Shown: positions 2,711 to 25,753, numbered from the stretch's first letter. The stretch: DNA of 64,000 nt from an uncultured Candidatus Binatia bacterium (GCA_964429575.1 CAYSCX010000005.1:75564-139563); one strand, 5' to 3'. The notes: a model not told the origin generated them from the sequence alone. A program made the numbers and translations.

Positions 2711-2715
2711 CAGGT

Positions 2716-2738
2716 TGTTGAAAATGCGCTTTTCAACA
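2716..2738. promoter_or_regulatory. perfect 9-bp inverted repeat (TGTTGAAAA-TGCGC-TTTTCAACA), a candidate operator about 55 bp upstream of the SRAP/yedK start
   Basis: The palindrome was read directly. It is AT-rich in a GC-rich genome, and no T-tract follows it, so a terminator is unlikely. It lies between the OMP gene stop (2710) and the yedK ATG (2794). Confidence 0.3.
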
Positions 2739-2793
2739 GCCTTGTATGTTGGAGATTTGGTACAAGGATCAAAGCAGGAGGCGCGGCTGAGTC

Positions 2794-3468
2794 ATGTGCG
2801 GACGATACACGCTAACGCGACGCGACAAGTTCGAGGTCGCCGCCGAACTCGGCGTCCCGGTTGAACAGCTCGAGAACTACCACCCGCGATTCAACATCGC
2901 GCCGCTCCAGCGCTCTTTCGTGTTGCGCAAACACGAGGGCGCTCGCGAGGCGCTCGAGGCACGCTGGGGACTCGTCAACCGTTGGGCGAAGGACAACTCG
3001 ATGGCGTCGAAGTGCATCAACGCGCGCTCGGAGACCGTCGAACAGCGCCCCGCGTTTCGCGACGCGTTTCAGAAACGACGCTGCCTCGTCCCCGCCGATG
3101 GCTTCTACGAGTGGACCGGTCCGAAAGGCAAGCGCCAACCCATCTGGATACATCGATCCGACGGCAAGCTGCTCTACCTCGCAGGCTTATACGAAGCGTG
3201 GCAGGCGAAGCCGGGCGAGTGGGAGACCACCTACACGATCCTCACTTGCGCTCCGAACAAAACCTTGGAGCCCATTCACAATCGCATGCCCGTAATTCTA
3301 CAAGGCGATGCTCTCGAGGAGTGGATCAATCCGGAGCATCGCGAGGTCGCCGATTTGAAGCAGGTGCTCGTGCCCGCGCCCGACGATCTGCTCGTCACGC
3401 AGGCCGCGTCGCCGCGCGTCAATAGCGGCCGCATCGACGATCCCGATCTGCTCGATCCGAGCAAGTAG
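2794..3468 (+). CDS. yedK: SOS response-associated peptidase (SRAP / YedK family, abasic-site processing protein)
   Basis: Begins MCGRY, with the catalytic Cys2 following the initiator Met. The SRAP/DUF159 signature is conserved throughout (…RFNIAPLQ…, …RCLVPADGFYEW…, HNRMPVIL). AGGAGG SD 8 nt upstream. Confidence 0.9.
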   Translation: MCGRYTLTRRDKFEVAAELGVPVEQLENYHPRFNIAPLQRSFVLRKHEGAREALEARWGLVNRWAKDNSMASKCINARSETVEQRPAFRDAFQKRRCLVPADGFYEWTGPKGKRQPIWIHRSDGKLLYLAGLYEAWQAKPGEWETTYTILTCAPNKTLEPIHNRMPVILQGDALEEWINPEHREVADLKQVLVPAPDDLLVTQAASPRVNSGRIDDPDLLDPSK

Positions 3469-11043: not shown

Positions 11044-11267
11044 CTCCGGAAGAACGCAACGACATTGCGGCGAATTCGCGCGAGGGTTGGAGCGTGCCCA
11101 AGCCCGAGCGCCTCCCAGCGCTTACCTATGCGCCCGCCGCACTCGCGCTCGGAATTACATTCGCCTGTTTCGGCGTGCTCACGTCTTATCTGTTCTGCTG
11201 GGTCGGAGTTGGACTGATGACGCTCGCGATCTGGAGATGGGTTGGAGAACTAGTGCGTGGCGAATGA
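11040..11267 (+). CDS. small 2-TM membrane protein. The GTG start is coupled to the ctaG stop. It could be an oxidase- or bc-associated subunit.
   Basis: GTG at 11040 overlaps the ctaG TGA (GTGA). The 75-aa product has two hydrophobic helices (…LALGITFACFGVLTSYLFCWVGVGLMTLAIW…). It terminates 10 nt after the Rieske gene start. Confidence 0.4.
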   Translation: MTPEERNDIAANSREGWSVPKPERLPALTYAPAALALGITFACFGVLTSYLFCWVGVGLMTLAIWRWVGELVRGE

Positions 11268-11775
11268 AACCAAAAAAGAGGGTGCCGGCGAACCGCTCAG
11301 CCCGCAGCGGCGCCGCTTCCTTGCGCGCCTGAGTATCGCGGCCGGCGCGGTTGCCGTTGCGATGGTTGGAGTTCCCGTGGTCGGTTTTATCATTGGGCCG
11401 CTGCTCCGCAAGATGCCCGAAACCTGGCGCGCCATTGGTCCCGTCCAGAATTTTGCGATCGGCGAAACCGTGAAGGTGAGCTTCCGCGACCCGACGCCGC
11501 TCGCATGGGCGGGAATCACCGCGGAAACCGGCGCATGGCTCCGCCGTGACAGCGACAGCGAGTTCACCGCCTTCGCGCTCAACTGCACGCATCTTGGTTG
11601 CCCGGTGCGCTGGCTCGACAAAGCCAACCTCTTCATATGCCCGTGTCACGGCGGCGTCTTTTACCGCGACGGTGGCGTTGCGGGCGGTCCTCCGCCGCGC
11701 CCGCTCTTCAAATACGCGGTCAGAATCAACCACGGCCAGGTCGAGATTCTCGCTGGCCCCGTGAAGATCGGCTAG
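11257..11775 (+). CDS. qcrA: Rieske [2Fe-2S] iron-sulfur subunit of a cytochrome bc-type complex (Tat-exported)
   Basis: Twin-arginine motif RRRFL followed by a TM anchor. Rieske boxes CTHLGC and CPCHGG. Confidence 0.85.
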   Translation: MANETKKEGAGEPLSPQRRRFLARLSIAAGAVAVAMVGVPVVGFIIGPLLRKMPETWRAIGPVQNFAIGETVKVSFRDPTPLAWAGITAETGAWLRRDSDSEFTAFALNCTHLGCPVRWLDKANLFICPCHGGVFYRDGGVAGGPPPRPLFKYAVRINHGQVEILAGPVKIG

Positions 11776-11787
11776 CCCGGACGCTGC

Positions 11788-13209
11788 GTGCTGAAACGGC
11801 TGCTCATCCAGTTGCGCGACGCTTTCGAGGAGCGCACCGGGCTTGGCAAGGTCCTCGCCGACCTCGCCAGCCATCCGGTGCCGCCGGACACGGGCTGGTG
11901 GTATGTGTTCGGCAGCGCGACGCTGGTCGCATTTGCGATTCAAGTCGTCACCGGCATGGCGCTCGCGACCGCCTACATCTCATCGAGCGGCGACGCGTAC
12001 CAGGCGCTCGAGTTCATCACCAACCAGGCGCTGCTCGGCAACCTGCTCCGCGGGATGCACTACTTCGGCGCGTCCGCGATGGTGCTGCTGGTCGGCATCC
12101 ACATGGCGCAGGTCTTCTTGATGGGATGCTACAAGTACCCGCGCGAAGTGAACTGGCTGACCGGCGTCGTCCTGCTCTTCCTCACGCTCGGGATGGGATT
12201 CACCGGTCAGTTGCTCCGCTGGGACCAGAACGCAGTGTGGTCGGTGATGGTCGGCGCGCAGCAGGCCGGCCGCACGCCGATCATCGGTGAAGCGCTCGCG
12301 TTTTTCATTCTCGGTGGCAAGACCCTTGGCGGCGCGACGCTCTCGCGCTTCTTCGCTGCCCACGTGTTCTTCATTCCGGCGGTCATCTTTCTCATCGTCG
12401 CGATCCATCTGTATCTCGTCATTCACGACGGCATCTCGGAGCCGCCAGTCGCCGGCGAACCGGTGGAACCTGCCGCCTACCGCTCCCGCTACGAGAAGTT
12501 GATCAAAGAACGGGGCGTCGCATTCTGGCCCGATGTGGCCTGGCGCGACGCCGTCGCGGCGTTGCTCGTCGTCGCGTCCGTCGTATTGCTCGCGTGGATC
12601 GTCGGTCCGCCGCAGCTCGACCTGCCTCCCGATCCCAGCGCACTCGCCCGCGACCCGCGCCCCGACTGGTACCTGGTCTGGTACTACGCGGTGCTCGCAC
12701 TGATTCCGCACGGACTGACCACCTGGGTTATCCTGCTCGCACCGCTGGTCGGAATTCTCGTGCTGATCTCCGTGCCGTTCATCTCAAATCGAGGTGAGCG
12801 CCATCCGCTTCGACGTCCGTGGGCTATCGGCGCCGTCCTGATGATTGTGATGATGATCGCGACGCTCTGGATCGAGGGGACGCGCGCGCCGTGGTCGCCC
12901 GACCTCGACGCCAAACCGCTCCCCGCGCACGTAGTCGGCACTACCACCGGCCCACTCGCAGCGGCCGCGAAACTCTTTTACGACCGCGGCTGCGAGTACT
13001 GCCACGAAATCGACGGCTACGGCGGCAAGCGCGGCCCCGACCTCACCTACATCGGCGACCGGCTCGACAAGTCCCAAATCGTAATCACGATAATGAACGG
13101 CGGCTACAACATGCCCGCCTACGCAAGCGTGCTCACGCCCGAGGAAGTCGAAGACCTCTCGATCTTTCTAAGCGCGCGAAAGCGCCGATACTCCGCCGCC
13201 GCCCGCTGA
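11788..13209 (+). CDS. qcrB: cytochrome b fused to a C-terminal mono-heme cytochrome c domain (bc-complex cytochrome b/c fusion)
   Basis: N-terminal cytochrome b with heme-ligand histidines and 8-9 TM helices (GWWYVFGS…, …HYFGASAMVLLVGIHMAQVF…, …HVFFIP…). C-terminal soluble domain with CEYCH heme-c site and a downstream Met ligand region (…IMNGGYNMPAY…). Confidence 0.85.
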   Translation: MLKRLLIQLRDAFEERTGLGKVLADLASHPVPPDTGWWYVFGSATLVAFAIQVVTGMALATAYISSSGDAYQALEFITNQALLGNLLRGMHYFGASAMVLLVGIHMAQVFLMGCYKYPREVNWLTGVVLLFLTLGMGFTGQLLRWDQNAVWSVMVGAQQAGRTPIIGEALAFFILGGKTLGGATLSRFFAAHVFFIPAVIFLIVAIHLYLVIHDGISEPPVAGEPVEPAAYRSRYEKLIKERGVAFWPDVAWRDAVAALLVVASVVLLAWIVGPPQLDLPPDPSALARDPRPDWYLVWYYAVLALIPHGLTTWVILLAPLVGILVLISVPFISNRGERHPLRRPWAIGAVLMIVMMIATLWIEGTRAPWSPDLDAKPLPAHVVGTTTGPLAAAAKLFYDRGCEYCHEIDGYGGKRGPDLTYIGDRLDKSQIVITIMNGGYNMPAYASVLTPEEVEDLSIFLSARKRRYSAAAR

Positions 13210-13227
13210 TACGCCAGCTTCACCCAC

Positions 13228-13447
13228 CAGGGTGTTGAGGAGAGCTGCGCGGTCCGCCCTCTCCGACCTCTCCCTGTCCACGTAGGGGCGCATGGCCGTG
13301 CGCCCTTCCCTCCACCAACCCGACCAACGGGAACGATCCTCCAGCCAACCTTCGACTTCCTGCGCTTGGCAGTCGCCTCTCTCGCCGCGGTCCGGTTCCC
13401 CTTCTCACAGTTCCCCTTCCCTTTAGGGAAGGGGTCAGGGGTTAGGT
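13228..13447. repeat. cluster of short palindromic repeat modules in intergenic DNA (copy set A)
   Basis: Contains CAGGGTGTTGAGGA (13228-13242). Contains GTAGGGGCGCATGGCCGTGCGCCCTTCC…CCCGACCAACGGGAACGATCC (13281-13339). Contains TTCCCCTTCCCTTTAGGGAAGGGGTCAGGGGTTAGGT (13411-13447), with a partial duplication at 13395-13405. Each module recurs at 22.4-23.6 kb. Confidence 0.6.
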
Positions 13448-13771
13448 AGGTCGCGGCTCGCTACGCTCTCCCTGACTTGGGACAGGCCGAATACTGTCGA
13501 TGCGCTTAGCAAGACTCGTTAGGTGGCGATGAGCGACAAGGGTCTGCGAGTCACCGTCGGAAATTTGCCGCCGACGCGATCTCGGCGGTGGGCACCCGAC
13601 GCCTGCCATCACCGCTCAAACGTAGCAGTTGCCTTCGCCTGCCCGTCAAAGCGGTGTGCTGCTTCATATTGGCCGGAACGGCGCCGGCGCAGTATCCGAA
13701 AAATCGAGCGTTGGCACGCCATGCATATCGTCGAGCGGAGAGGAACGTCCCGTGCGGTCGGAGGAGGAGGA

Positions 13772-16453
13772 ATGGCGATGTCAGAGGCGCGCGATCGCGG
13801 CGTCCCGGTAAAGGACACTCCACCGGCGCCGGCGCTCGGACGGCTCGTAGTTCGCACGCCGCCCCGGCAAGGATTGCCACGCTCGCGCAAAGGTGCGGCT
13901 GCCGACGCCGCGGTCAACCCACACTCGGAGGCGGCAGGTGAGAACATCGAATCGCCAGCGCCGGTCGCATCCGCAGACGCGGTCGCACATCCGTTTGCCG
14001 CTGACGATCTCTCATTCCTTAAGCTCGTTCTTGCAAGCGTGGGTGCGGCGATCCTCGTGTTGGACCGCAAAGGCGGTGCGGTGTTCGTGAACCGCGAGGC
14101 CCATGAGTTGTTTCGCGTTTCCGGCGAGCCCGGCGCCGGGATTGAGGTCGAGGCTCCCATGCTCCAGCTCGCCGCTGACGGAGTCACCCCGCTCGACCCG
14201 CGAGATCGTCCCATCATGCGCGCTCTCGTCGGCGAGCTGGTTGACGGCGAAGAGATCTGCATTCGCCACGCCGGGAGCGATGCGCCTCAGTGGCTCATGG
14301 CCAACGCCCGGCCGATCGTCGGCCCCGACGCCCGCATACTCGGCGCGGTCGGCCTGTACATCCGTATCGATTCACCCAAGGCGCGCAAAAAATCGCTCCT
14401 GAAGGCGCGCGACGCAGCCCTCATCGCTGCCGGCGCCAAGACCGAGTTCATGGCTAACATGAGCCACGAAATCCGCACCCCGCTGAGCGCGATCGTCGGA
14501 ATGACCCGCCTGCTGCTCGATTCCAAGCTCTCCGCCGAGCAGCGCGAGTTTGCTGAAACCGTGGGCCTTAGCGTCGATTCGCTGATCTCCATAGTCAACG
14601 ATGTCCTCGATTTCTCCAAGATCACCGCGGGCAAGCTCAAGCTGGAGACGGTCGAGTTCAGCCCGATCGGGGTCATCGAAAGCGTCGTTGAGACGTTCGC
14701 CGCGCAAGCCCTCGCCAAACACATTGAGCTCGCCTCCACTGTCCACGGCGAGGTGCCCACCGCGGTCATCGGCGACCCCTCGCGCCTGCGCCAGGTGCTC
14801 ACCAATCTCGTCGGCAACGCGATCAAGTTCACCGAGCACGGAAGCGTGCTCGTCGAGCTCAACCGCGAACCCGTCACCGCGGATCAAGTCGTGCTCCGCT
14901 TCAGCGTGCGCGACACCGGTATCGGAATTTCGCGCGCCGATCAGCGCCGTCTCTTTCAGCCTTTCTCCCAGGCCGAAACCTCTACCACTCGAATGTACGG
15001 TGGCACCGGGCTTGGCCTCGCCATCTGTACGCGTCTCGTCGAGCTCATGTCCGGTTCAATCGGTGTCCAAAGCGCGCCGGGCGAGGGCTCCACGTTCTGG
15101 TTCACCGTCCCGTTTCACACTCCCGACACCGCATCGACGCTCGCCGATGAAGCCGTCGCCGAACTTGCCGGCCTTCGAGTGTTGATCGCCGATGACAGCA
15201 GGTTCGTCGCATCGGCGTTGTGCCAACAGCTCGTCTCGTGGAGCCTTGATTCCGAACGCGCAAGCTCCGCCGCCGAAACGCTCGACCTGCTCCGCGCTGC
15301 TGCCGCCGGGCACCGCCCGTTCGACGTCGTCCTCATCGGGACTGAGATCGGCGGTGGCGGCGCAATCGCGCTCGCCAAAACCATCCGCTCGGCGCCCGAC
15401 GTTGGCCGGCCGCGCTTGGTCGCGACCTACCCGCTTGGGCACCGCCCCAATGAACGCCAGATGCGCGACGCCGGCCTGTGTTCGTGGATCGCCAAGCCGA
15501 TGCGCCCGTCACAGCTCTTGAACCGCCTTGCCGGGGCGATGGCGCAAACCCACAGCGCGAACGTCCGCGCTCCGACCGCCGCCGACACCGTGAGGGCCCC
15601 CTCGCGCCGCCGCACCGCACTGCTCTCTGACCAGCAACGCAATGATGCGCGCATCCTGCTCGCCGAAGATCACGCCATCAATCAGCGCGTCGCGCTCATG
15701 ATGCTCAAGAAGCTCGGCTATCACGCGCATGCGGTCGCAAACGGCCGCGAGGTCATCAACGCGCTCAACACGCATCCTTATGACCTCGTGCTCATGGACT
15801 GCCAAATGCCCGATCTCGACGGCTACGAAGCGACCCGCCGGATCCGCCAGACGGCGGCCGAGTATCGGCACATCCCGATCGTGGGCGTTACCGCTCATGC
15901 CCTCGAAGGCGATCGCGAGAAATGTCTTGCCGCCGGAATGGATGATTACTTGACCAAGCCCATCCTGCCCGAAAAGCTGGGCGAGACTGTCGAACGCTGG
16001 CTTGCGCATTGTGCCGCGCGCAATCTCTCGCCCGGCAACGGGCAGCCGACCGCGCCTAACCCGTCAAATTCATCAACGGAGCGCACCGTTGATGTTTCTC
16101 TGATCGAAGCCATCGGCGGGTCCGGCCCGTCGGGCGATGCTTCCTTCGTTGGCGAGCTTATCGACGCGTTCCTCGAAGACCTCGACACCCGCATCGCGCA
16201 AATAAAATCTGACCTCGCCGATTGTGAACTGGTCCGCATCACGCACAACGCCCACGCGCTCAAGGGCAGCGCCGGTCATTTCGGAGCCGCCGCGCTGATC
16301 TGCCGGCTCGCCACACTCGAAACCTTGGTGCGTGAAGATCGACGCGATCAGATTGCGGCGGCAATTGGTGCGGTCGAACGCGAGGCCGCATCAGTGAAGC
16401 GCGCGCTCGTGGCGATCCGTCCCCGCCGCTCCCATCGCGAAACGGACAAGTGA
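13772..16453 (+). CDS. hybrid sensor histidine kinase (PAS - HisKA - HATPase_c - pseudo-receiver - receiver - Hpt)
   Basis: The ATG at 13772 is directly preceded by GGAGGAGGAGG. H-box [19 protein letters not shown]-box GTGLGLAI, receiver with [11 protein letters not shown] and a C-terminal Hpt ([15 protein letters not shown]). The track ORF from 13523 adds an Arg-rich, low-complexity extension that is unlikely to be translated. Confidence 0.85.
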
Positions 16454-18669
16454 TCGCGATGCCGATCACGTCGCCTCGGAGCTTCGCGTGGCCAATCTGG
16501 GCCGGCTTCGCACTGACGCTGGCGACCCTGGCCGTCGTCGGCGCGGTTTCATACCGGACCACCGCCGACGTCGCAGCCAGTAGCAGCCTGGTCGGCCGCA
16601 CTCACGTTGTGATCGAGACGCTTCAGGAGTTACAGACAGCCATCGACGCGGCCGAGAGCCGTCACCGCGGATACTTGCTCACCGGCGATCCATACTTCCG
16701 CAGGCCGGCGGCCCCCGAGGTGGCCGTAACGGCCGAGCGGCTCATCGAGAAAGCGCGTAACCTGATTCGAGATCAAAATCAGCAACGGCGCCTTGAGCTG
16801 CTTCGCCCGCTAATCGCGGCGCGACTCACGCTTTTCGATCAAATCCTCGCGGTTCGAGATGCCGACGGACTTCAAGCTTCCGTTCGCTACATCGTGGCGC
16901 ACCGCCCATGGGTAGTCACGGCCACCATCAAGCAGCGGATCGGCGAGGCGATTGCCGAAGAGCACCGGCTGCTCGACGAGCGCGATAGCGGCGCGCGTGC
17001 AACCGCGCGCACCGCGCTGAATGTGGACGTGTACGGCACCTTGGCAGCCCTCGCGTTCGTGCTGTTCGCTGGCGTGTTCATTCAGCGCGCGCTTTCCAGG
17101 CGCCGCGAGGCGGCTTTCCTTGCCGAGCAACGCACCGCGGCGCTCGAACAGTCCGAGCGCGAACTTCAGTTGCAAATCACAATGGTCCAGCGGGGTAGGG
17201 CCCGTTTCGGCCAACTCCTGGCGACCGCCCCGGATGCGATGGTGGCGATTAACGAGAGCGGTAAAGTCGCCCTGTTTAACGGCCTCGCTGAACAGGTCTT
17301 CGGCTACTCCGCCGCGGAGGTTGTAGGCAGACCGATCGAGTTGCTGCTGCCCGAGCGTTTCCGCTCTCGTCACGAGGGCCACCGGACCGGTTTCTTCGCC
17401 GATCCACGCCCGCGTCTGATGGGCGAGGGACTCGACCTGTTCGCACGACGCAAGGACGGCACGGAATTTCCCGCGGATGTGCAGCTGAGTCCGATCGAGA
17501 GCGACAATGGAATGCTCGTTCTGAGCACGATTCGCGATCTGACCGAACGCAAGCGCGCTCAGCAGACGCAGGCGCTGCTCGCATCGCTCGTTGAGACCTC
17601 ACAATACGCCATCGTCACGCACAACATCGATGGTGTGGTGACGACGTGGAACGAGGGCGCAGAGCGGCTCTACGGCCGTAATCAAACCGAGGTCATCGGC
17701 CGATCGGTGGACGAGATGATTCCGCCCCAGGAGTCCGCCAACATCGCGGGACACTACCAGAGCTTGAAGGACGGACAGGGCATGCAGGAATTTGAGACCC
17801 GGCTGCTGAGGAAGGACGGCGCGCTGGTCGAAGTATCCATGGCGATGTCCCCGATCCACGACGCGCGCGGAATCATCGTCGCGTATTCAACGCTTAGCAA
17901 CGATATCACCGAGCGCAAGCGCGCCGAGCGTGCCTTGCTCGATAGGTCGGAGGAACTCGCACGCTCCAACGCCGAACTCGAGCAATTCGCCTACGCGGCC
18001 TCGCACGACCTCCAGGAGCCGCTCCGAATGGTCGCGAGCTACGTCGAGCTGCTCGCGCGCCGTTACAAGGGCCGCCTCGATAACGATGCTGACGAGTTCA
18101 TCAACTTCGCGGTTGACGGCGCGCGGAGAATGAAACGGCTCATCAACGATCTGCTTACCTACTCGCGGGCGGGACGTGGCCGCGCGCTGGAACCGGTCCG
18201 CCTCGACGAGGCTGTGCAACACGCGCTGACCAATCTCGCGCTGAACATCGAAGAAACCGGGGCCATGGTTACTTGTGATGCAATGCCAACCGTGAGCGGT
18301 GACGAATCGCAACTCACCGAGCTTGTGCAAAATCTGGTCGCCAACGCGATTAAATTCTGCGGGGAAAACCCGCCCGCCGTCCACATCTCGGCTGCGCGCA
18401 AAGGTTCGTCGTGGCTCATCTCGGTGCGCGACAACGGCATCGGCATCTCATCCGAATACGCCGAACGGATCTTCGTGATGTTTCAGCGCCTCCACGGCCC
18501 ATCGGATTACCCCGGAACCGGAATCGGCCTTGCCATCTGCAAACGGATCGTCGAGCGCCACGGCGGGAAGATCTGGATGGAATCGCTTCCGGGGCAGGGG
18601 ACGACATTCTACTTCACATTGCCCGCCAGGGCGGGAGACGGGGACCATGCAAAAGAACATCAGAGCTAA
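16450..18669 (+). CDS. membrane sensor histidine kinase (CHASE3-like periplasmic domain - PAS - PAS - HisKA - HATPase_c)
   Basis: N-terminal TM, a roughly 180-aa extracytoplasmic domain and a second TM. Two PAS domains each end in …[10 protein letters not shown]-box is [11 protein letters not shown] (phytochrome-type HisKA) and the HATPase_c motif is [18 protein letters not shown]. The start overlaps the previous stop (GTGA). Confidence 0.85.
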
Positions 18670-19102
18670 ACCCGCGAATATCCTGCTGGTTGAGGACAAT
18701 CCGGGCGACGTGAGGTTGACCGTGGAGATCTTCACGGAGGGCAAGGTCATCAACAGCCTGGCGGTGGTCTCGGACGGCGTCGAAGCGATGGAGTTTATGC
18801 GCCGGCAAGGGCGCCACTCCCGCGCGATGCGTCCGGATCTGGTCCTGCTCGATCTCAACCTGCCCCGCAAGGATGGCCGCACCGTACTTGCGGAAATGAA
18901 GGCCGATCCCGACCTGAGGCGAATCCCGGTCGTGATCCTCACGACCTCGCAGGCCGAGTCGGACATCCTAAAGAGCTACGAGTCCCACGCGAATTGCTAC
19001 ATCAGCAAGCCGGTCGCGCTCGAGGAATTTATCGACGTGGTGCGCCAGATCGAGGGCTTCTGGCTCACCATCGTCAAGCTGCCCTCGGACCAAACAGCAT
19101 GA
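18647..19102 (+). CDS. single-domain response regulator (CheY-like receiver, Rcp1-type)
   Basis: ATG at 18647. Receiver signature LLVEDNPGD…[10 protein letters not shown]…K. There is no output domain. It overlaps the upstream kinase 3' end by 23 nt. Confidence 0.85.
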
Positions 19103-21531
19103 ACACCGGTCCGATCCCGGTCCTTCTCATCGAGGACAATCCCGGCGATTCGCGCCTCGTCCGCGAGGCTTTGGCCGAATGCGGTGCCGTGCGCTTCGAG
19201 GTCGAGTGGTGCAAGCGCCTCGACCACGCGCTCAAGCGCCTCAGTGAGAAGGAGTTTGAAGTCATCCTGCTCGATCTATCGCTGCCCGACTGCTCGGCTT
19301 CCGAAACTGTCTCGCGCGTCCAGGCGCACGCCAGGAATGTGCCCATCGTCGTGATGACCGGACTCGACGACGAGAAAATCAGTCTCGAATCCGTCAAGGA
19401 CGGCGCCCAGGACTATCTCGTCAAGGGACAGTTCGATGGGCGCCTGCTCACCCGGGCAATCCGCTACGCGATCGAGCGCATGCGCACGCAGGATGAAATG
19501 GCGCGGGCGCGTGACTCCGCATTGGAGGTCGCCGGCCTCAAGTCGGCGTTCCTCGCCAACGTCAGCCACGAGGTCCGCACCCCGATGAACGCGATCATCG
19601 GAATGACCCGGATGTTGCTCGACACCCCGCTCAACGACGAGCAAAAGGAGTTCGCACAAGCGGTCTGGTCCAGCGGCCACTCGCTGCTTGGAGTCATCAA
19701 CGACATCCTCGACTTCTCAAAGGTCTCATCGGGCGGACTCAAGATCCGCGATATTGAGTTCAACCCCACCGAGACCGTCGAGTCGGCGCTGGAAATGTTC
19801 GCCGAGCGTGCGCTCGAATCGAGCGTCGAACTCATCTCGTACGTGGATGGCGACGTGCCCGCGCGTCTGCGCGGAGATCCGGACCGGGTCCGCCAGGTGC
19901 TTGCGAATCTTATTGGGAACGCCGTCAAGTTCAGCGGAAACGGCGAGGTCGCGGTGCTGGTGCGCAAGGAGTCGGAAACCGAGCGCGTGATGGATCTGCA
20001 CTTCACGGTGCGTGACAACGGCGCTGGCATCGCGCCGGAAATCCAGCGCACGCTTTTCCAGCCGTTCGTGCAGGGCGATCTCTCGATGACTCGCCGCCAT
20101 GGCGGCGCCGGTCTGGGCCTCGCCATCTCCGCCCAGATGGTCGAGCTGATGCGCGGACGAATCGGGCTGGAAAGCAAAGTCGGCGAGGGATCTCTTTTCT
20201 GGTTCACGGTTCGCCTTCGCAAGTGCGATGCCGTAAACCACCATCGTGATCCGGCCCGCGAACGCCTCTGGGGTCTGCGCGCGCTGGTGGTCGGTTCTGC
20301 GCGCGGCGGCTCTGATCTGACCCGCCGCCAGCTCGCGGCCTGGGGAATCGATGCCGACGCTGCGCACAGCGGCGCCGAGGCGCTCACCGCTATCGACGCA
20401 GCGCGCCTGGCCCGCAAGCCGTACCGCGTGGCCCTTTGCGACTCGGTGCTTAGCGACATGCCGGGATTGGATCTCGCACGCAAGGCTGGCGCCGGCCTGT
20501 CTGGCGCGAAGACTCGGTTCGTCGTCGTTTATCCGATGGGCCAGCGGCCTGCGGATGCATTACTACGCAAGGCGGGCATCAAAGGCAGCCTCGCCAAGCC
20601 GCTCCGTCAGACCCAGTTGGCAGGCCTCCTCGCCGACGCCGTCGCGCCCGCCGATGCGCGCGCCACGGCGGGCCGCCAGACCGCGATTTCCGGCACGGTT
20701 TTGCCCCCGCGCGAACCGCCCGATCCCGCCGCGCGCGAGGCGCACGCCGGCAAGCGAATCCTTTTGGTCGAGGACCACGCCGTAAATCGCAAGGTCGCGA
20801 TGAAAATGCTGGAGCGGCTCGGATATCAGGCCGATGCTGTCGCCAATGGAATCGAAGCGCTCGATGCTCTCGAGCACGCTCGCTACGACCTGATCTTGAT
20901 GGATTGCCAGATGCCCGAGATGGACGGCTACCAAGCCACCCGCGAAATCCGCCGCCGCTACCCGCCTCCACAGCACGTCCCCATCGTCGCCGTTACCGCG
21001 CATGCGCTCGAGAGCGATCGGCAAAAGTGTCTCGACGCCGGCATCGACGATTACCTGAGCAAGCCGTTCCTGCCCGAGCAACTCGCCGAGAAGATCGAGA
21101 GCGGACTCTTAAGGCACCCCATCGCCGCGCCATTGATGCGGGTCGCGCCCAACCACGCGCCCGCACCCGCATCCGCAATCACGCCGTCCGCCATTGAACG
21201 GCTGCGCAGCGCCGCCACCGATGACGCTCCGAACTTTCTGATCGAATTGATCGATACGTTTCTCGCCGACATGGCCGGGCGGCTCACGGGGATGCGCCGC
21301 GAATTCGCCAACGGCAATGCGATTTCGATTTCGCGGCTTGCCCACGGCCTCAGGGGCAGTTGCGCCCACTTCGGTGCAGTTGCGCTCATGACGCTATGCG
21401 CTCGAATCGAACAACAGGCGGGTGCCGGCCCCATCGAGCCGGTCGGCAACACCCTCGCCCAACTCGAAGTGGAGGCACTCCGTGTCCGAACCGAACTTGA
21501 AGCTCAACGAGCAGTCGAAGCGGCCGGTTGA
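19099..21531 (+). CDS. hybrid sensor histidine kinase (receiver - HisKA - HATPase_c - pseudo-receiver - receiver - Hpt)
   Basis: The ATG at 19099 overlaps the response-regulator stop (ATGA). N-terminal REC ([10 protein letters not shown]…), H-box [15 protein letters not shown], second REC with [11 protein letters not shown], and Hpt [15 protein letters not shown]. It is a paralogue of 13772..16453. Confidence 0.85.
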
Positions 21532-22399
21532 ATTTCGCTCGCCGGCGCCGCGCGAAAGTGTCGATGCGCCCTCCGCACCGGTCGCCGCCGCGCGGGGAAT
21601 GCACCGCATCACTGAAGTCCTGGCCGGCAAACGCTTCGCCTTGCTGGGATTCGACCACCTTGCGTCGGATCGCATCGTCGCGGCCTTCGAACGCGTGCGC
21701 GCGCACGCCCGCGTTGTCGCCGGTGACGCCGGTCACCCCGGCCTCAGTCCGCTTGCACGCTTCGACGGATGCATTATCAATGCGTCCACGCAGCTCAATG
21801 CGGAGGGCTTGCGTCCCGACGAGGTCCTGATCCACAGCGGCAAGCCGGGGCTGCTGGTCGGCTCGCGCAAGGAAATGATCGATCACGCGTTGAACATTGC
21901 TGCGGCGACCTGCGACTTTGTCGTCGAACCGTGGGAGCCGGAGGACCTCCTGTTTCGCGCCTACCGCGTCTGCCGCCACTCCGAAGCGGCCGGCGACTCG
22001 CCGGCGCCCGCACGCGGAGATCAGGCGACCATTCTTGTCGCCGATGACGACCCCACCACCACGATGCTCATGACCGCGATGCTCAAGAGTTTGCAAATGA
22101 CTAGCTGGATCGCACGTGACGGCGCCGAGGCGCTCCGGCTCGCTCGCGAGCTGCGGCCCGATGTCATGCTGCTCGATCTCCAGATGCCCGAAATGGATGG
22201 CTTCGAGGTGCTCTCCGCGTTGCGCAACGATCCCGTAACCCGCACCTTGCCCATCATCCTGCTCACCGCCTCCCACGCTGAAACCGACATCGCCCGCGGG
22301 TTCTCGCTCGGCGCCGACGACTTCGTCACCAAACCGTTTCACCCGCTCGAGATGATGGCTCGGGTGCGACGGCTGCTCCGCCCGCAGCGCGCGGAATAG
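21482..22399 (+). CDS. response regulator with an N-terminal degenerate (pseudo-)receiver-like domain and a C-terminal canonical receiver
   Basis: GTG at 21482 with a GGAGG SD 6 nt upstream. The C-terminal REC has …ILVADDDPT…DVMLLDLQMPEMDGFEV…K. The start is uncertain (an alternative is ATG at about 21599). Confidence 0.7.
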   Translation: MSEPNLKLNEQSKRPVEFRSPAPRESVDAPSAPVAAARGMHRITEVLAGKRFALLGFDHLASDRIVAAFERVRAHARVVAGDAGHPGLSPLARFDGCIINASTQLNAEGLRPDEVLIHSGKPGLLVGSRKEMIDHALNIAAATCDFVVEPWEPEDLLFRAYRVCRHSEAAGDSPAPARGDQATILVADDDPTTTMLMTAMLKSLQMTSWIARDGAEALRLARELRPDVMLLDLQMPEMDGFEVLSALRNDPVTRTLPIILLTASHAETDIARGFSLGADDFVTKPFHPLEMMARVRRLLRPQRAE

Positions 22400-22416
22400 G
22401 CGCACGCGCGCTCCCG

Positions 22417-22504
22417 GTTCCCCTTCCCTTTAGGGAAGGGGTCAGGGGTTAGGTCGTCGCTTAGGCAAAGCTCTCTCCTGGCAGGGTGTTGAGAAAAGCC
22501 TCGA
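22417..22504. repeat. palindromic repeat modules (copy set B) upstream of tRNA-Cys
   Basis: GGTTCCCCTTCCCTTTAGGGAAGGGGTCAGGGGTTAGGT (22417-22454) is identical to 13409-13447. CAGGGTGTTGAGAAAAGCCTCGA (22482-22504) matches 13228-13242 and 23516-23536. Confidence 0.65.
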
Positions 22505-22651
22505 GTTCCAAGCTCGCAGCCGCGATTCCTCGCGCCCGCCGCGCAGCCGCGCCAATTCTTGCGTCAAATTCGCCGCAGATCGCTCGCCGCGGCTCGTCAA
22601 TTGATGGCGCGGAACTCGCGTGATAGTTGATTGTTTCCGCACAACCGGTGA

Positions 22652-22727
22652 GGCGGCGTACCCAAGTGGCTAAGGGAGAGGTCTGCAAAACCTCCATTCA
22701 CCGGTTCGAGTCCGGTCGCCGCCTCCA
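22652..22727 (+). tRNA. tRNA-Cys (anticodon GCA)
   Basis: Acceptor GGCGGCG/CGCCGCC, anticodon stem GAGGT/ACCTC with loop CTGCAAA, T-arm ACCGG-TTCGAGT-CCGGT, discriminator T and an encoded CCA. Confidence 0.85.
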
Positions 22728-22840
22728 GCAAGCCGTCCCGACCGACGGGAGTAATCGTCACTTTATCGCACGACTCTCAATTCGACCGTCGGCATGGGAT
22801 GCCGTCGCGAGCGGTGAGGGTGCTTGAATCTTCCCCTCTT

Positions 22841-22970
22841 CCGTAGGGGCGCACGGCTGTGCGCCCTTCTCTGTTTTCTTCTCACCGTCCCGACCAACGG
22901 GAGCGATCTGTCGGCGCCCATTCCACTTCATGCCATTGGGAGTCGCGGCTCGCGACCGCTCCCGCTACGG
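22841..22970. repeat. palindromic repeat modules (copy set C)
   Basis: CCGTAGGGGCGCACGGCTGTGCGCCCTTCT…CCCGACCAACGGGAGCGATC (22841-22907) is homologous to 13281-13339. GTCGCGGCTCGCGACCGCTCCCGCTACGG (22942-22970) shares GTCGCGGCTCGC / GCTACG with 13450-13470. Confidence 0.6.
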
Positions 22971-22988
22971 CGGGCGCTCGATCGCTGG

Positions 22989-23495
22989 CTATTGCTTCAC
23001 CGCGGGCGGCTCCGCTTCGACGCGACGCACCTTCAGCGCGACCTCACACCCACTAGCGCCTTCGCCGTAGCAGAAATTCCTGAGCACTCCCGGGTCGCCG
23101 CCCCGCTCATCCCGCGCGAAGCTCGGGCACGTCCAACTGCCGCCCGCCGAGCGGTAGAGCGCAACCGCGAAGTATCTCCCCTGCGGCAGCACGCCGGCGG
23201 CCGGCTCACTCGCACGCGCCTCATCGGTGCGTACCACCGTAAATCCGTCGTGCCCGCCCGTCGGCGTAAGCACCATGAAAAACACCTGCCATTGCCGCCC
23301 GTCATGTGCGGAGAACTCGTAATGCATCGCACGATTGTCCGAAAAGACCGGCTTGTCGCGGCACAGCCACGGCCGCGGCTGCTGAGATTCGGCGCTCGCG
23401 ACGCGCGGGAGGCCGGCGCTGAACGCGCACAGGCCGGCTGCGCCGATCAGAGCAGTGCGAACCACGATTCGCGCGCGCATCCTGCTCCGCAGCAT
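22989..23495 (-). CDS. small secreted protein of unknown function (signal peptide, 4 Cys)
   Basis: Minus-strand ORF. Start is ATG at 23495 (MLRSRMRARIVV…) or 23480. It has an n-h-c signal peptide ending …RVASA/ESQQ. It is flanked on both sides by the palindromic repeat modules. Confidence 0.45.
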   Translation of the reverse strand: MLRSRMRARIVVRTALIGAAGLCAFSAGLPRVASAESQQPRPWLCRDKPVFSDNRAMHYEFSAHDGRQWQVFFMVLTPTGGHDGFTVVRTDEARASEPAAGVLPQGRYFAVALYRSAGGSWTCPSFARDERGGDPGVLRNFCYGEGASGCEVALKVRRVEAEPPAVKQ

Positions 23496-23515
23496 CAATG
23501 TCCGTTGCGCCCTAG

Positions 23516-23623
23516 CAGGGTGTTGAGAAACCTCGAAAAATCCCAAATGTGCCGGCCTTGTCTCTCAACGCCCTGCGTGAAGACTGGCTTCGTTCCTAAA
23601 CTTCTCTCCCGCCTCGGGAGAGA
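23516..23623. repeat. palindromic repeat modules (copy set D)
   Basis: CAGGGTGTTGAGAAACCTCGA (23516-23536) has its inverted copy TTGTCTCTCAACGCCCTG at 23558-23575. TCTCTCCCG-CCTC-GGGAGAGA is a perfect palindrome at 23603-23623. Confidence 0.6.
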
Positions 23624-23698
23624 CAAGAGTGAGGGCGCAGGCGGCTGAAATAGTTTTTCAACCGCTTGCTTGGGGCGGGGTGTCTGCTGCGCCGCCAC

Positions 23699-25753
23699 TC
23701 ATGCCGCGAGTGCTATCAACGCGCCGACGATCGCGCCGAGCTTCGCGTCCTTGGGCGTGAACACCAGCTTGATTCCAAGTTCGAGCAGCGCGGCACGGTC
23801 TCGCTCAGGAATGATTCCGCCGATCACCACCTTGACGCGGTCCGCCTTGCGTTCCCGAAGCAATGCCATCGTCTCGCGCGCGATGTTCATATGCGCACCG
23901 GCGAGGCTCGAGATTGCCAGGATGTCCGCGTCCTCTTGCAGAGCAGTCTCGACCAATTGTGCCGGCGTCTGCTTGAAGCCCGCCAATACCACTTCCATCC
24001 CCGACTGGAGGCATGCCTGCGCGAGCAGTTTCACCGCATTGATGTGGCCGTCGAGACCCGCCTTGCCCAGCGCAATCTTGATGCGCCTCGGCGCCCGCGG
24101 CACGTTCAGCGCGACGCGCCCGGCCCCATCTTCGAGCACCGGCGGAGTGTATCTGCCTCGCGTCGCGCTCTCGATGGTTGACGACCACTCGCCGACCGTG
24201 CCTCCCGCGCGCGCGAGCTCGAGCGTCGGCTCCATCACCGGACCGCCTTCGCGCGCCGCGCGGTCGAGCGCTTCGCGTGCCCGTGCGACCGCGCCCTGAT
24301 CGCGTTCGCCGCGCCAGCGCTTGATCGCCTCGATGCGTTCGTTCGCTGCCGCCGCCCCGCCCGCGCCGTCATCTGAGGATGGCGGCATTTCAGCGAGCCC
24401 GATCTCGCCCAGGAACGAGTTCACGCCCACCCGTACTATCTCGCCGCTCTCGAGCCTGCGCTGCCGGTCGGCAAGTTGGTGCGTCAGCTCCGCGCTTATG
24501 ATCGATATCGATCGCGAGTAGCCGGCCGCGCGCAGCTTCATTGCAATCGCCTTGGCGCGTTCCGCAGTCTCATCTGTGAGCTTCTCGATCACCCGGCTCC
24601 CCTCAAAAATGTCGGGATACTTCGCAATCTCGGTTTCGAACATCAGAATTTGCTGCGTGCGCAGGCTCAGCAGTTGCTCGGCCTGATCCGGGAGCGCCAA
24701 CGCTTCGCGGAATCCGGGCAACTGCAGCGCATTGACGCGCGCGCCCGCCGAAAGCAGCACCGGCAAGGCTTCGTATGCGATACGGATGATGTTGACCTCG
24801 GGTTGCTGCGCCGTGAGCGTGAGCGATCGCACCTGGCAGCCCGCGCGGAATGCGACGTTCTCGATTCCGTATTCGGTCTCGCAGAGCTCGCGCCACAGCT
24901 TGAAATACGCCCGCACCTTGCAGATTTCGGGCACCAGCTCGATGCCGCTGTTGATGAAAAACGAAATACGCCTGACCGTGCGCTCGAATGCGCCCCGGTC
25001 TAGTTCGCTGCGCAGCGCGTCCAGCAACAGCATCGCGTTGCCGAAGGCGTAGCCAATCTCCTCCGCCGGCCCCGCGCCGCTCTCCATGTAGTGGTAGCCG
25101 CAGCAGTTGATCGGATTCCAGTTGGGCGCCCGATGCACGGTGAAGCTGATCAGTTCGGTGGAAAGGCGCAACGAGACTTCCGGTTGGAATATCGACGTCC
25201 CGCGCGCGACGTACTCCTTGAGCAGGTCGTTCTGAGTCGTGCCGCGAAGTTCCGTCCACGCGACTCCGTGTTTTTCGGCGACCACCAAGTACAGCGCCAG
25301 GATGAAGGGCGCGGTCGCGTTGATCGTCATCGACGTGTTGATCGATCCTAGCGGGATGCCCTCGAAGAGCGCCTCCATGTCGCGCCGGTGACAGATCGAT
25401 ACGCCGGCCTTGCCGACTTCGCCCGCCGCGACCAGCGCATCGGGGTCGTATCCGTTTTGCGTGGGCAGGTCGAATGCGATCGAAAGCCCGCGCTGCCCCT
25501 GCGCGAGGTTCGCTCGAAACCGCTCGTTTGCCTGCTGCGCGTCGCCGAATCCCGCGTAAGTGCGGATGATCCACGGCTCGCGTTGCTTAAGCGCCGGTTC
25601 GGCTTTCAATTTCACTTGTTTGGCGGCCAATTCGGGCACTCCGTCCCGTCGCGGCAGCCTCAAGCGTAGTTGCCGAGGTCCCCCGATTCCAGCAGGCTTT
25701 GCGAGGGTGCTAGGTGGCCGCCCGGGAAGTGTCGCCCGCGCTTTCCGCCTCAA
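23699..25753 (-). CDS. coenzyme B12-dependent acyl-CoA mutase, methylmalonyl-CoA mutase family, with a fused C-terminal B12-binding domain
   Basis: MCM-family catalytic-domain motifs (…PWIIRTYAGFG…NERF…, …TQNGYDPD…). C-terminal cobalamin-binding Rossmann domain (…LGKAGLDGHINAVKLL…ILAISSLAGAH…). The start is uncertain because the 5' end overlaps the upstream ArsA-like gene by 44 nt. Confidence 0.8.
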   Translation of the reverse strand: MRRKARATLPGRPPSTLAKPAGIGGPRQLRLRLPRRDGVPELAAKQVKLKAEPALKQREPWIIRTYAGFGDAQQANERFRANLAQGQRGLSIAFDLPTQNGYDPDALVAAGEVGKAGVSICHRRDMEALFEGIPLGSINTSMTINATAPFILALYLVVAEKHGVAWTELRGTTQNDLLKEYVARGTSIFQPEVSLRLSTELISFTVHRAPNWNPINCCGYHYMESGAGPAEEIGYAFGNAMLLLDALRSELDRGAFERTVRRISFFINSGIELVPEICKVRAYFKLWRELCETEYGIENVAFRAGCQVRSLTLTAQQPEVNIIRIAYEALPVLLSAGARVNALQLPGFREALALPDQAEQLLSLRTQQILMFETEIAKYPDIFEGSRVIEKLTDETAERAKAIAMKLRAAGYSRSISIISAELTHQLADRQRRLESGEIVRVGVNSFLGEIGLAEMPPSSDDGAGGAAAANERIEAIKRWRGERDQGAVARAREALDRAAREGGPVMEPTLELARAGGTVGEWSSTIESATRGRYTPPVLEDGAGRVALNVPRAPRRIKIALGKAGLDGHINAVKLLAQACLQSGMEVVLAGFKQTPAQLVETALQEDADILAISSLAGAHMNIARETMALLRERKADRVKVVIGGIIPERDRAALLELGIKLVFTPKDAKLGAIVGALIALAA

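Follow-up and report, generated by a model that had tools for sequence, protein, structure and literature searches.

GTAG-tagged palindromes and putative BoxC/PIT-type triplex motifs in intergenic spacers of an uncultured Binataceae-like bacterium

Two kinds of short repeat known from E. coli are the closest described systems for the DNA analysed here. GTAG-tagged REPs are defined as palindromes of 20-40 bp with a stem of 6-13 bp, a short loop and, at one of the two ends, a GTAG that stays unpaired (PMC3733652). The BoxC/PIT/TM class was defined (ITxF, PMC4666352) by three blocks that follow one another on the same strand, with stems of 6-15 nt, loops of 1-6 nt and at most one mismatch. Its members are intergenic, show no strand bias and are linked to local instability. 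A stable triplex of TM_ECO was obtained in vitro; Holder et al. (PMC4666352) found no evidence of a stable in vivo triplex for the E. coli motif. A BoxC-like consensus matched 5409 of 5426 E. coli genomes, at a median of 18 places per genome.

The window (the whole 64-kb stretch of DNA analysed) comes from an uncultured Binataceae-like bacterium and carries both kinds, namely GTAG-tagged REP palindromes and candidate BoxC/PIT triplex-forming motifs. The repeats were real and far above chance. The original prediction of short palindromic intergenic repeats of the REP/BIME kind was borne out, and module 2 has the unpaired GTAG tag that defines the GTAG REP superfamily (PMC3733652). Its picture of four independent modules in freely shuffled order was wrong, because modules 2, 2b and 4 align as one composite whose part order was constant in three copies. 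The four spacers are probably repeat-dense intergenic DNA in which short non-coding repeats that form structures, of three or more unrelated families, persist as semi-selfish elements at the DNA level. When the hairpins of modules 1-3 were folded as DNA, z values of -3.0 to -4.3 were obtained; the module 4 region folded weakly (z = -1.7). In an Rfam search of the window, tRNAs alone reached the gathering threshold and none of the repeats passed.

GTAG-tagged palindromes in composite X

As judged from the aligned sequences, modules 2, 2b and 4 make up one composite of ~130 nt, here called X, with inverted CGTAG tags at its ends, which we interpret as a doublet of GTAG-tagged REP-like palindromes. 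Module 2 (GTAGGGGCGCAYGGCYGTGCGCCC) was found at 13282 and 22843, as predicted (0 expected), and module 2b (CCCGACCRACGGGA..ATC) at 13319, 22889 and 22737 (0.13 expected), the last of which had been missed. Both X copies are on the + strand. The 5' part of copy A (13281..13376) contains the CGTAG tag, the REP hairpin 13282-13305 and the small hairpin CCCGACCAACGGG at 13319-13338, and runs to AGTCGC. Copy A is then interrupted by a 78-nt segment (13377..13454, + strand) that holds a triplex motif and a partial duplicate of the 5' arm (13392-13404). The 3' end (GGCTCGCTACG, 13455..13465, + strand) then supplies the rest of the GTCGCGGCTCGC palindrome and the inverted GTAG tag (CTAC, 13461-13464). 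When the segment was removed in silico, copy A aligned continuously with copy C. The segment is bordered by the direct repeat GTCGC (13372-13376 and 13450-13454), and this single duplication could instead reflect recombination at the shared palindrome.

Copy C (22842..22969) has no interruption. Its parts are the CGTAG tag, the REP hairpin 22843-22866, module 2b at 22889-22908, GTCGCGgctCGCGAC as a palindrome at 22942-22956 and, at 22965-22968, the inverted tag CTAC. The copy lies downstream of the small secreted-protein gene, which is on the opposite strand. An extra module 2b hairpin (CCCGACCGACGGGAGTAATC, 22737..22756, + strand) was located 10 nt after tRNA-Cys (22652-22727); beyond this one locus, the suggested association with tRNA genes was not seen. 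The 12-nt match of module 4 was by itself at chance level within the window (E ~0.9). We consider module 4 credible because it occupies the same place in the aligned ~130-nt composite and recurs beside module 3 in the related contigs L032 and L361.

Each of the two REP hairpins, 13282-13305 and 22843-22866, consists of GTAG, an 8-bp G+C-rich stem and a 4-nt loop, and the bases following the stem (TTCC or TTCT) cannot pair with GTAG, leaving the tag unpaired. Besides these 2 copies in 64 kb, copies were found in L263 (2), L337 and L361, and 84 viral contigs carried the same head and stem. The unpaired GTAG beside such a stem, the length of ~24-28 nt and the position between unidirectional or convergent genes are all shared with described GTAG REPs, and two inverted tagged palindromes ~100 nt apart with outward tags resemble REP doublets (PMC3733652, PMC3116915 and PMC2817692). 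In contrast to REP doublets and REPINs, the two X palindromes have unlike stems and the spacer of X carries a third small hairpin. A REPIN, which needs two inverted copies of the same REP (PMC3116915), was rejected for X since the stems are GGGCGCA and GTCGCG; with different stems, no long REPIN hairpin results. Like enterobacterial BIMEs, the spacers hold clusters of different short structured motifs in recurring combinations. However, regular alternation of REP orientation with defined inter-REP motifs was not seen here, and the mosaic mixes unrelated families (REP doublet, triplex motif and other palindromes) nested in one another.

When 19 RAYT/TIRYT proteins were compared by tblastn with the window and with 380 fetched loci (2.7 Mb), no RAYT/Y1 transposase gene was detected, and nothing fell below E = 0.03. 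Since RAYTs are usually single-copy, their absence from the sampled loci says little. X-like elements may move as single-stranded DNA, driven by a RAYT-type HUH tyrosine transposase whose gene would lie elsewhere in the genome, and a Y1/RAYT gene would be expected in Binataceae genomes rich in the GTAGGGGCGCA palindrome. Acidobacterial Y1 transposase genes were flanked by a different repeat.

Triplex-type motifs

Module 3 had been described as a fully identical repeat with a 9-bp hairpin. An identical stretch of 38 nt was confirmed (13410-13447 = 22417-22454; blastn E = 3e-16), although the first G of the predicted repeat is A in copy A. The 9-bp stem was also confirmed, but the element is more than a hairpin: it consists of a pyrimidine arm, a loop, a purine arm, a second loop and a G/T tail, GGGGTTAGG, that is the mirror image of the purine arm. 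Because of this mirror tail, module 3 is assigned, from its sequence, to the class II purine-motif intrastrand triplex motifs (BoxC/PIT/TM class). Copy 1 (13413..13446, + strand) reads CCCCTTCCC ttta GGGAAGGGG tca GGGGTTAGG, with all 9 Watson-Crick pairs present and 8 of 9 triads compatible with reverse-Hoogsteen pairing. Copy 2 (22420..22453, + strand) lies 20 nt past the stop codon of the response-regulator gene. A third motif of this type with a different stem, TTCTCTCCC gcctc GGGAGAGAC aa GAGTGAGGG, was identified at 23602..23635 (+ strand); an alternative register is TCTCTCCCG cct CGGGAGAGA caag AGTGAGGGC, and the tail again mirrors the purine arm. This motif had been missed by the original prediction.

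A generic triplex-architecture scan of the 64 kb, which allowed a loop 1 of 3-8 nt and was thus slightly wider than ITxF, returned exactly these 3 sites, compared with a shuffle mean of 0.35. All three have 9-nt stems, with 4-5 nt in loop 1 and 2-3 nt in loop 2. In each, 8-9 of the 9 stem positions match as Watson-Crick pairs and 8 of the 9 as triads. All the window motifs have the ITxF blocks and the mirror tail, and they are intergenic, multi-copy and without fixed orientation. Among viral-contig sites chosen by the hairpin alone, 64 of 74 carried the mirror tail, and at loci chosen by the GTAG REP alone it was present on 19 of 20 homopurine-arm hairpins. By comparison, ~1.06 Mb of effectively random viral DNA yielded 1 homopurine-arm hairpin and 0 tails. 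The tail equalled the reversed arm (A -> A or T) in 40 of 61 unique pairs covering 37 distinct purine arms, against 37 of 2000 re-paired controls, and the tail base opposite an arm A was A or T in 119 of 151 cases. In the window, the partners are GGGAAGGGG with GGGGTTAGG and CGGGAGAGA with AGTGAGGGC.

In the proposed structure, the pyrimidine and purine arms of one DNA strand would fold into a hairpin, and the G/T tail would fold back along the purine arm, adding the third strand of G.G-C, T.A-T and A.A-T triads. As such a strand would run antiparallel to the purine arm (G.G-C, A/T.A-T triads), the tail would be expected to mirror that arm. The ViennaRNA folds cover the hairpin part of this structure. 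All three window copies are intergenic. Orientation was mixed among the 120 genome loci listed (crude gene model); the trp operon of L087 carries two copies in opposite orientations, and the G-rich strand of motif 23602 is antisense to both neighbour genes.

The likeness to BoxC/PIT/TM_ECO (PMC4666352, and Hoyne et al. 2000 to the extent cited there) extends to the block order (pyrimidine arm, loop of 3-6 nt, purine arm, loop of ~3 nt, reverse-Hoogsteen arm), 9-nt stems with one mismatched triad tolerated, loop 2 variants of the tta/ccg type, G+C-rich composition, strictly intergenic multi-copy occurrence, and association with indels and rearrangements between close strains. The stems differ, being CCCCTTCCC/GGGAAGGGG/GGGGTTAGG and TCTCTCCC/GGGAGAGA/AGTGAGGG in the window and CCCTCNCCC/GGGNGAGGG/GGGNGAGGG in TM_ECO. 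The TM_ECO sequence subfamily (CCCTCNCCC N3-6 GGGNGAGGG N3 GGGNGAGGG) was therefore rejected for the window copies, which would share the structural class; TM_ECO-like copies occur in the related contig L509. The host also differs, the window motifs belonging to a Binataceae-like lineage and being likened to TM_ECO from their sequence. TM_ECO is reported only from Proteobacteria and not from phages, whereas the CCCCTTCCC subfamily was found in several phyla (cyanobacteria, Chloroflexota, Planctomycetota and Armatimonadota), in soil and sediment metagenomes and in IMG/VR viral contigs. The Rfam family Whalefall-1 (RF01762; consensus UCuCuCC[4]GGaGaGACA[22]AGgGuGAGGAC) has the same layout of hairpin and mirror tail, and 23600-23636 aligns to it. 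However, the window site scored 19.8 bits, well under the gathering score of 37, the 22-nt insert of the model is missing here, and Rfam treats the motif as RNA.

Dispersal and turnover between strains

All families recurred at non-orthologous loci in related metagenome contigs. Module 2-type and module 3-type motifs were present in hundreds of unrelated contigs, and pattern scans for module 3 gave at least 120 loci in genomes of several phyla and at least 120 in metagenomes.

The elements come and go among close relatives, as the orthologous spacers of three related strains lack them or hold different ones. The mutase gene and the small gene are separated by 218 nt in the window, by 113 nt in L509 (94% identical in nucleotide sequence), by 47 nt in L510 and by 20 nt in L511. 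The composite found in this spacer of the window (region D) was absent from all three, and L509 has an X fragment in its place. A 3.1-kb indel bounded by X copies separates L509 from the window, and the orthologous X copy C in L509 is 91% identical. At 22420-22453 the window represents the empty site relative to its ortholog L297, which has 25 extra nt exactly within loop 1 of the triplex hairpin. The small dispersed repeats (SDR) of Nostoc, reportedly described by Elhai et al. in 2008, are said to be 21-27 nt long and nested inside other repeats. The 23-25-nt hairpin-loop mini-insert seen here is similar in size and likewise nested, and differs in sequence and host range. Module 3 and its surroundings were unusually conserved between strains that are 93% identical, and this strong conservation could point to a host function.

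We suggest that insertion is tolerated between unidirectional or convergent genes, where repeats acting at the DNA level as semi-selfish elements would pile up, nest inside one another and be rapidly gained, lost or exchanged. Because of this rapid exchange, they would mark sites of strain-level rearrangement.

Module 1 palindromes and alternative explanations

Module 1 (CAGGGTGTTGAGRA) is the arm of a lineage-specific palindrome family that occurs with 5-nt or 32-33-nt spacers and as solo arms. The predicted exact copies at 13228, 22482 and 23516 were confirmed, together with an inverted copy at 23562-23575 with 2 mismatches, but the module is one arm of palindromes and not a stand-alone unit. 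At 2 mismatches or fewer, 7 matches were found, with 0.39 expected. A solo arm (CAGGGTGTTGAGGA, 13228..13241, + strand) lies 19 nt past the cytochrome b/c fusion gene's stop codon; any partner it may have is degenerate, and the region 13226-13280 folds weakly (z = -1.7). The solo arm at 22482..22495 (+ strand) is conserved in the ortholog L297. No strand is assigned to the complete palindromes. The long one (23515..23576; 14-bp arms, 32-nt spacer, z = -3.8) lies within the spacer that precedes the small secreted-protein gene. A degenerate short one (GCAGGCGGCTGAAAtagttTTTCAACCGCTTGC, 23637..23669), also missed before, is just downstream of the methylmalonyl-CoA mutase gene and has intact relatives in L261, L263 and L302. 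An intact short palindrome (CAGGTTGTTGAAAAtgcgcTTTTCAACAGCCTT, 2711..2743, z = -3.9), outside the range of the original prediction and absent from it, directly follows the TAG stop of ORF 1439-2710.

It is possible, though doubtful, that these palindromes and the ~155-nt composite 23513-23670 are MITEs of a DDE-type insertion sequence with the terminal inverted repeat CAGGSYGTTGARAA and target duplication CTAG/TAG. The inverted 14-nt arms have two fixed spacings, the outer arms of the composite are mutually inverted, CTAG or TAG flanks many copies, and the ends may resemble those of the IS5 family. The composite is whole again in L302 (81% identity), partly present in L263 and L261, and missing from the orthologous spacers. 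However, a full set of classical MITE features did not emerge: the arms lacked a consistent target-site duplication, and neither a parent insertion sequence nor a transposase gene with these ends was found in the window or the fetched loci. The CTAG flank is often one-sided, at 2711 it is the stop codon, and the 33-nt short form is far under the usual MITE size.

An RNA-level role at 3' ends, as factor-independent or Rho-assisting terminators or as stabilisers of upstream mRNA and the tRNA-Cys precursor against 3' exonucleases, is unlikely. Some E. coli REPs shield upstream mRNA from 3' exonucleases; the stems here are stable, and the copies at 13228, 22420, 22737 and 2711 closely follow stop codons or a tRNA (several by 10-20 nt). 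REPs are also biased to positions downstream of ORFs and have G-T pairs in their stems (PMC3733652). The original statement that no T-tract follows was not entirely correct, as a T-rich run (CTCTGTTTTC) follows REP 22843-22868, which a simple terminator scan listed. Its conclusion that the repeats are not terminators nevertheless held, since terminator-like sites were not enriched (6 found, 8.5 in shuffles). Intrinsic termination (a hairpin followed by a T/U tract) was rejected, REP 22845-22868 alone qualifying, loosely. Moreover, orientation to transcription is mixed, the same spacers of related strains lack the elements, and in E. coli PIT elements acted neither as promoters nor as terminators (PMC4666352). 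The mirror covariation (G to G, A to A or T) suits a DNA purine-motif triplex, which reportedly does not form in RNA (PMC4666352). It is very improbable that the repeats are operators or other sites bound by a nucleoid protein or host regulator, such as one tied to the neighbouring hybrid histidine kinase/response regulator cluster, and recur because its regulon extends over these spacers. The palindromic shape suits dimeric DNA-binding proteins, IHF and gyrase bind some E. coli BIMEs (cited in PMC2817692), and the conservation around module 3 would fit. Against this, some copies follow stop codons or separate convergent genes, the gene contexts in other contigs are unrelated, both structural classes occur in viral contigs and the module 3 type in other phyla, orthologous spacers lack the repeats, and no sigma-70-like promoters were found in the region. 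Purely local duplication or mis-annotated coding sequence, each named at the outset as a possible refutation, has next to no likelihood, even though only 9 kb separates two of the loci and some modules are overlapped by long ORFs. All modules are non-coding: these ORFs (22824-23648, +; 13220-13408, -) are low-complexity read-throughs or lack a match in Pfam, and the repeats occupy different frames and strands. Together with the orthologous spacers that lack the elements, recurrence elsewhere refuted this reading: the modules were found in at least seven contigs with different neighbours, and those in L261, L263, L298, L302 and L361 share no flanking genes with the window.

Repeat families in the intergenic spacers

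The intergenic spacers are better described as a mosaic of a GTAG-tagged REP doublet, BoxC/PIT-type triplex motifs and a lineage-specific palindrome family. All three families nest in one another and are unstable between strains. A puzzling intergenic block from an uncultured soil or sediment lineage was thereby resolved into two structural repeat classes first known from E. coli, together with the palindromes. Each module was compared with shuffled sequence, and the four spacers were inspected directly. The shuffle tests confirmed the recurrent intergenic modules of the original prediction, with slightly corrected coordinates. Module 1 (CAGGGTGTTGAGRA) had three exact copies in the window, at 13228, 22482 and 23516, and an inverted copy at 23562-23575; with two or fewer mismatches there were seven matches versus 0.39 expected from shuffles. 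The GTAG palindrome of module 2 was found at 13282 and 22843 (0 expected from shuffles), and its small hairpin companion, module 2b (CCCGACCRACGGGA..ATC), had three window copies at 13319, 22889 and 22737, the last of them missing from the original prediction. For module 3, 38 nt were identical between 13410-13447 and 22417-22454 (E = 3e-16). The 12-nt match of module 4 alone was at chance level in the window, so its credibility came from its place in the composite described below and not from the match itself. Folding of the hairpins as single-stranded DNA gave stable structures for modules 1-3 (z = -3.0 to -4.3); the regions of solo module 1 and module 4 were weak (z = -1.7).

The spacers lie among a cytochrome b/c fusion gene (11788-13209), three hybrid histidine kinases with a response regulator (13523-22399), tRNA-Cys (22652-22727), a small secreted protein gene (22989-23480, minus strand) and a methylmalonyl/ethylmalonyl-CoA mutase gene (23699-25753, minus strand). 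The closest named homologues of the mutase, at 90% identity, came from Candidatus Binataceae MAGs. The kinases are consecutive and carry PAS, CHASE3, receiver and Hpt domains; together with the regulator they occupy the 9 kb between the identical module 3 copies, and receiver-domain segments of these genes account for families D1 and D6 among the coding-sequence repeats of the repeat scan. Rfam at gathering and permissive thresholds returned only tRNAs in the window, the rest being sub-threshold noise. No relevant match to the raw module sequences or to the read-through ORF peptide strings was found in the literature. The repeats of these spacers give rise to spurious ORFs.

Alignment of 13278-13475, 22839-22975 and L261 6140-6440 (L-numbers denote fetched metagenome, genome or viral loci) revealed a common unit of about 130 nt, here called X. 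From 5' to 3' it opens with a CGTAG tag and the GGGCGCA palindrome; the small hairpin CCCGACCAACGGG comes next, then conserved sequence (..TTCGACTTCCTG..TTGGGAGTCGC), and the unit closes with a second palindrome, GTCGCGgctCGCGAC, and an inverted ..CTACG tag. On the opposite strand of L361 this second palindrome read GTAGGGGTCGCGAGTCGCGAC, which indicated that X joins two different GTAG-tagged palindromes into a doublet whose tags face outward. Four modules in shuffled order had been proposed; the repeats held, but as independent units they did not, since modules 2, 2b and 4 align as one composite. A GTAG REP is defined by an unpaired GTAG, a 6-13-bp stem and a short loop (PMC3733652), and the 5' palindrome of X has all three. 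Neither terminator-like nor promoter-like sites were enriched in the window, and the earlier view of the modules as REP/BIME-like elements and not terminators was borne out. Copy A of X (13281-13465) was split by 78 nt at 13377-13454, bearing the triplex motif and flanked by the direct repeat GTCGC; with these 78 nt removed, it aligned without a break to the uninterrupted copy C (22842-22969). The segment fits an insertion with a 5-bp duplication, and recombination at the shared palindrome is also conceivable. At five sites in L207, including those at 1020 and 5546 on the minus strand, a GTAG REP was followed by tandem (CATCGTGATGCGCCC)n copies of its own 3' half, which looks like local half-palindrome expansion.

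Module 1 proved to be one arm of a palindrome that takes three forms in the window and related contigs, many copies being flanked by CTAG. The short form, with a 5-nt spacer, was found at window 2711-2743 and, degenerate, at 23637-23669, as well as in L261 (3509), L263 (2788) and L302 (673). In the long form the arms are 32-33 nt apart (window 23516-23575, L263 2932-2991 and L302 550-610), and solo arms stood at window 13228 and 22482. Between the mutase and small secreted protein genes, 23513-23670 comprised a long palindrome, a triplex motif and a short palindrome, and the same block was present in L302 at 81% identity. Among viral contigs the module 1 14-mer gave only chance-level matches, none with an inverted partner, indicating that this family is lineage-specific. 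At 2708-2743 a perfect 13-bp module 1 palindrome starts at the TAG stop of the ORF at 1439-2710, upstream of an SRAP/YedK-like gene (2794-3468).

The triplex motif and its mirror-image tail

The 38-nt identity of module 3 stood, but its reading as a plain 9-bp hairpin gave way to a three-strand motif with a mirror tail. The tail GGGGTTAGG mirrors the purine arm GGGAAGGGG, which reads GGGGAAGGG in reverse. At 23602-23637 the stem differs and the mirror rule is kept (arm CGGGAGAGA, tail AGTGAGGGC); more than 100 further arm/tail pairs in the fetched loci followed it too, for example a 13-nt arm GGGAAGGGAGAGG with tail GGTGAGGGTTAGG. With the register set from G positions only and scan-selected arms left out, the tail was the reversed arm (A to A or T) in 40 of 61 unique pairs versus 37 of 2000 re-paired controls. 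When the bare hairpin CCCCTTCCC-N4-GGGAAGGGG was used as the query, 74 sites were recovered on 56 viral contigs, and a tail GGGG(G)T[TA][AG]GG, which was not part of the query, followed 1-4 nt after the hairpin at 64 of them. A genome scan requiring both arm and tail gave at least 120 loci of 38-75% G+C, the matches listed including cyanobacteria, Chloroflexota, Planctomycetota, Armatimonadota, Desulfonema, Dehalococcoidia and others. In loci picked solely by the GTAG palindrome (L178-L260, 0.76 Mb), 19 of 20 homopurine-arm hairpins had the tail; about 1.06 Mb of effectively random viral DNA (L389-L508) held one such hairpin and no tails. From the hairpin counts in these two sets, GTAG REPs and triplex motifs tend to share genomes. 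A generic triplex scan of the window found exactly three sites versus a shuffle mean of 0.35.

Judged from base order, module 3 is predicted to take the geometry of a purine-motif triple helix whose third strand runs antiparallel, giving G.G-C, T.A-T and A.A-T triads. This geometry together with the mirror tail places module 3 and the 23602 site, as predicted new sequence variants, in the known structural class of BoxC, later renamed PIT elements and then TM motifs (Holder et al. 2015, PMC4666352). In its class II order the pyrimidine arm is followed by the purine arm and the reverse-Hoogsteen arm. In E. coli the motif lies between genes with no preference for either strand, showed no promoter or terminator activity, and formed a stable triplex in vitro, with none stable detected in vivo (PMC4666352). 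A BoxC-like consensus matched 5409 of 5426 complete E. coli genomes at a median of 18 places per genome. Mirror covariation of arm and tail through dozens of stem variants, several phyla and viral contigs is comparative evidence for maintained triplex-forming potential, and selection may keep this ability. If so, a conserved cellular interaction would be implied, beyond mere instability.

The viral CCCCTTCCC motifs (IMG/VR, L002-L057) numbered up to five per contig on 56 contigs; most of them occupied narrow gaps between genes of the same direction, the C-rich strand being the sense strand. The E. coli study, in contrast, found no phage association, and GenBank phages and plasmids gave no meaningful module 3 match; the viral contigs may be proviruses or mis-binned host DNA.

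An RNA-level role as 3' stabiliser or terminator is possible for some copies. Orientation is mixed, however, T tracts are lacking and the triad covariation is of the DNA type; RNA does not form purine-motif triplexes (PMC4666352). A promoter or 5'-leader role for module 3, considered because in viral contigs the C-rich strand lies 5' of a ribosome-binding site and ATG, was rejected on the mixed orientation in genomes and in the window. A G-quadruplex in the G-rich half was also discarded, as the fourth run of G comprises just two bases and the tail is better accounted for by the mirror rule. The Rfam Whalefall-1 consensus (RF01762), UCuCuCC[4]GGaGaGACA[22]AGgGuGAGGAC, combines a hairpin with a mirror tail, as class II triplex motifs do, and window 23600-23636 aligned to it at a sub-threshold 19.8 bits (threshold 37 bits). 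By its layout, this "RNA motif" may represent a triplex repeat of DNA.

Dispersal and turnover between strains

The modules were present in five contigs (L261, L263, L298, L302 and L361) that encode none of the window's flanking proteins, which refutes the local duplication named in the original prediction as an alternative. Orthologues at 93.4% identity were found for 19793-22735 (L297) and 11045-13465 (L337). At these loci the triplex motif and its close surroundings were about 99-100% identical (13386-13470 vs L337, 22417-22481 vs L297), whereas flanking spacer and genes differed by 6-7% and the GTAG palindrome and module 1 arm of the same spacers had several substitutions. Purifying selection or copy homogenisation could possibly account for the high identity.

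The genes for the mutase and the small protein were separated by a spacer of 218 nt in the window, 113 nt in L509 (94% nucleotide identity), 47 nt in L510 and 20 nt in L511. The composite of this spacer was absent from all three orthologues, L509 having an X fragment there. Downstream of the small gene L509 kept X, followed by two TM_ECO-like triplex motifs, and between X and tRNA-Cys it carried 3.1 kb of extra genes with a further X fragment at the far edge. This X-bounded indel (L509 4436-7560 vs window 22735-22829), from a strain 91-94% identical, includes an acyl-CoA dehydrogenase gene among others. One of the two TM_ECO-like motifs (L509 4470-4700) had a hairpin nested in its second loop. 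The comparisons demonstrate dispersal, nesting and rapid gain and loss of repeats whose structures and family membership are established, the latter by defining sequence features. The changes are of the same sort as those published for E. coli TM loci, where indels and rearrangements between strains are more frequent (PMC4666352). The repeats mark changes of synteny and spacer length between 91-94% identical strains, and standing at such change points they are likely breakpoints of metagenome assembly.

In L297 an additional 25 nt lay precisely within the loop of the triplex hairpin, TTTA|GGCCTGCCCTGAGCGAAGTCGAACG|GGGAAGGGG (L297 2650-2676), and window 22433/22434 was the otherwise identical empty site. 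The same mini-element of about 23-25 nt, with core CCTGAGCGAAG(T/C)CGAAGG and a mini-hairpin-like GCGAAG centre, occurred in triplex loops of L295 and L307, in GTAG-REP loops of L201 (about 2200) and L524, and within the CCCGACCAACGGG hairpin at L261 6196-6220. Among viral contigs, 19 of 109 occurrences had complementary flanks of at least 6 bp; elsewhere the element formed inverted dimers with short and variable closing stems. A tentative and rather doubtful reading of these alignments is that unrelated hairpin repeats acquire the element by insertion into their apical loops. Should it really be mobile, it would target hairpin loops at a size far below that of MITEs, and well outside cyanobacteria.

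Candidate mechanisms and transposase search

For the GTAG doublet, the candidate mechanism is the one proposed for GTAG REPs, in which a RAYT-type Y1 transposase would mobilise it as single-stranded DNA; tblastn of the window and of 2.7 Mb of loci found no RAYT. For the triplex motif, a transient triplex might form on single-stranded DNA during replication or repair, and polymerase stalling and slippage there would be the source of instability, both as proposed for TM_ECO.

The gene pairs between inverted module 3 copies were housekeeping genes. Repeats flanking TIRYT genes, which like RAYTs encode Y1 transposases, have the published motif GGGGWSAS. Module 3 was considered as such an inverted repeat since GGGGTCAG fits this motif, yet the acidobacterial TIRYT genes (L381, L383 and L386) carry another flanking hairpin, CGGGTGCCCCACATC..GATGTGGG, and the candidate was rejected. 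In Acidobacteriota this hairpin lay upstream of the Y1 genes, in conserved housekeeping settings (after tsf, beside recA). In Acidobacterium capsulatum CP001472 (L381 2700-3000) it was present as four tandem units of about 60 nt.
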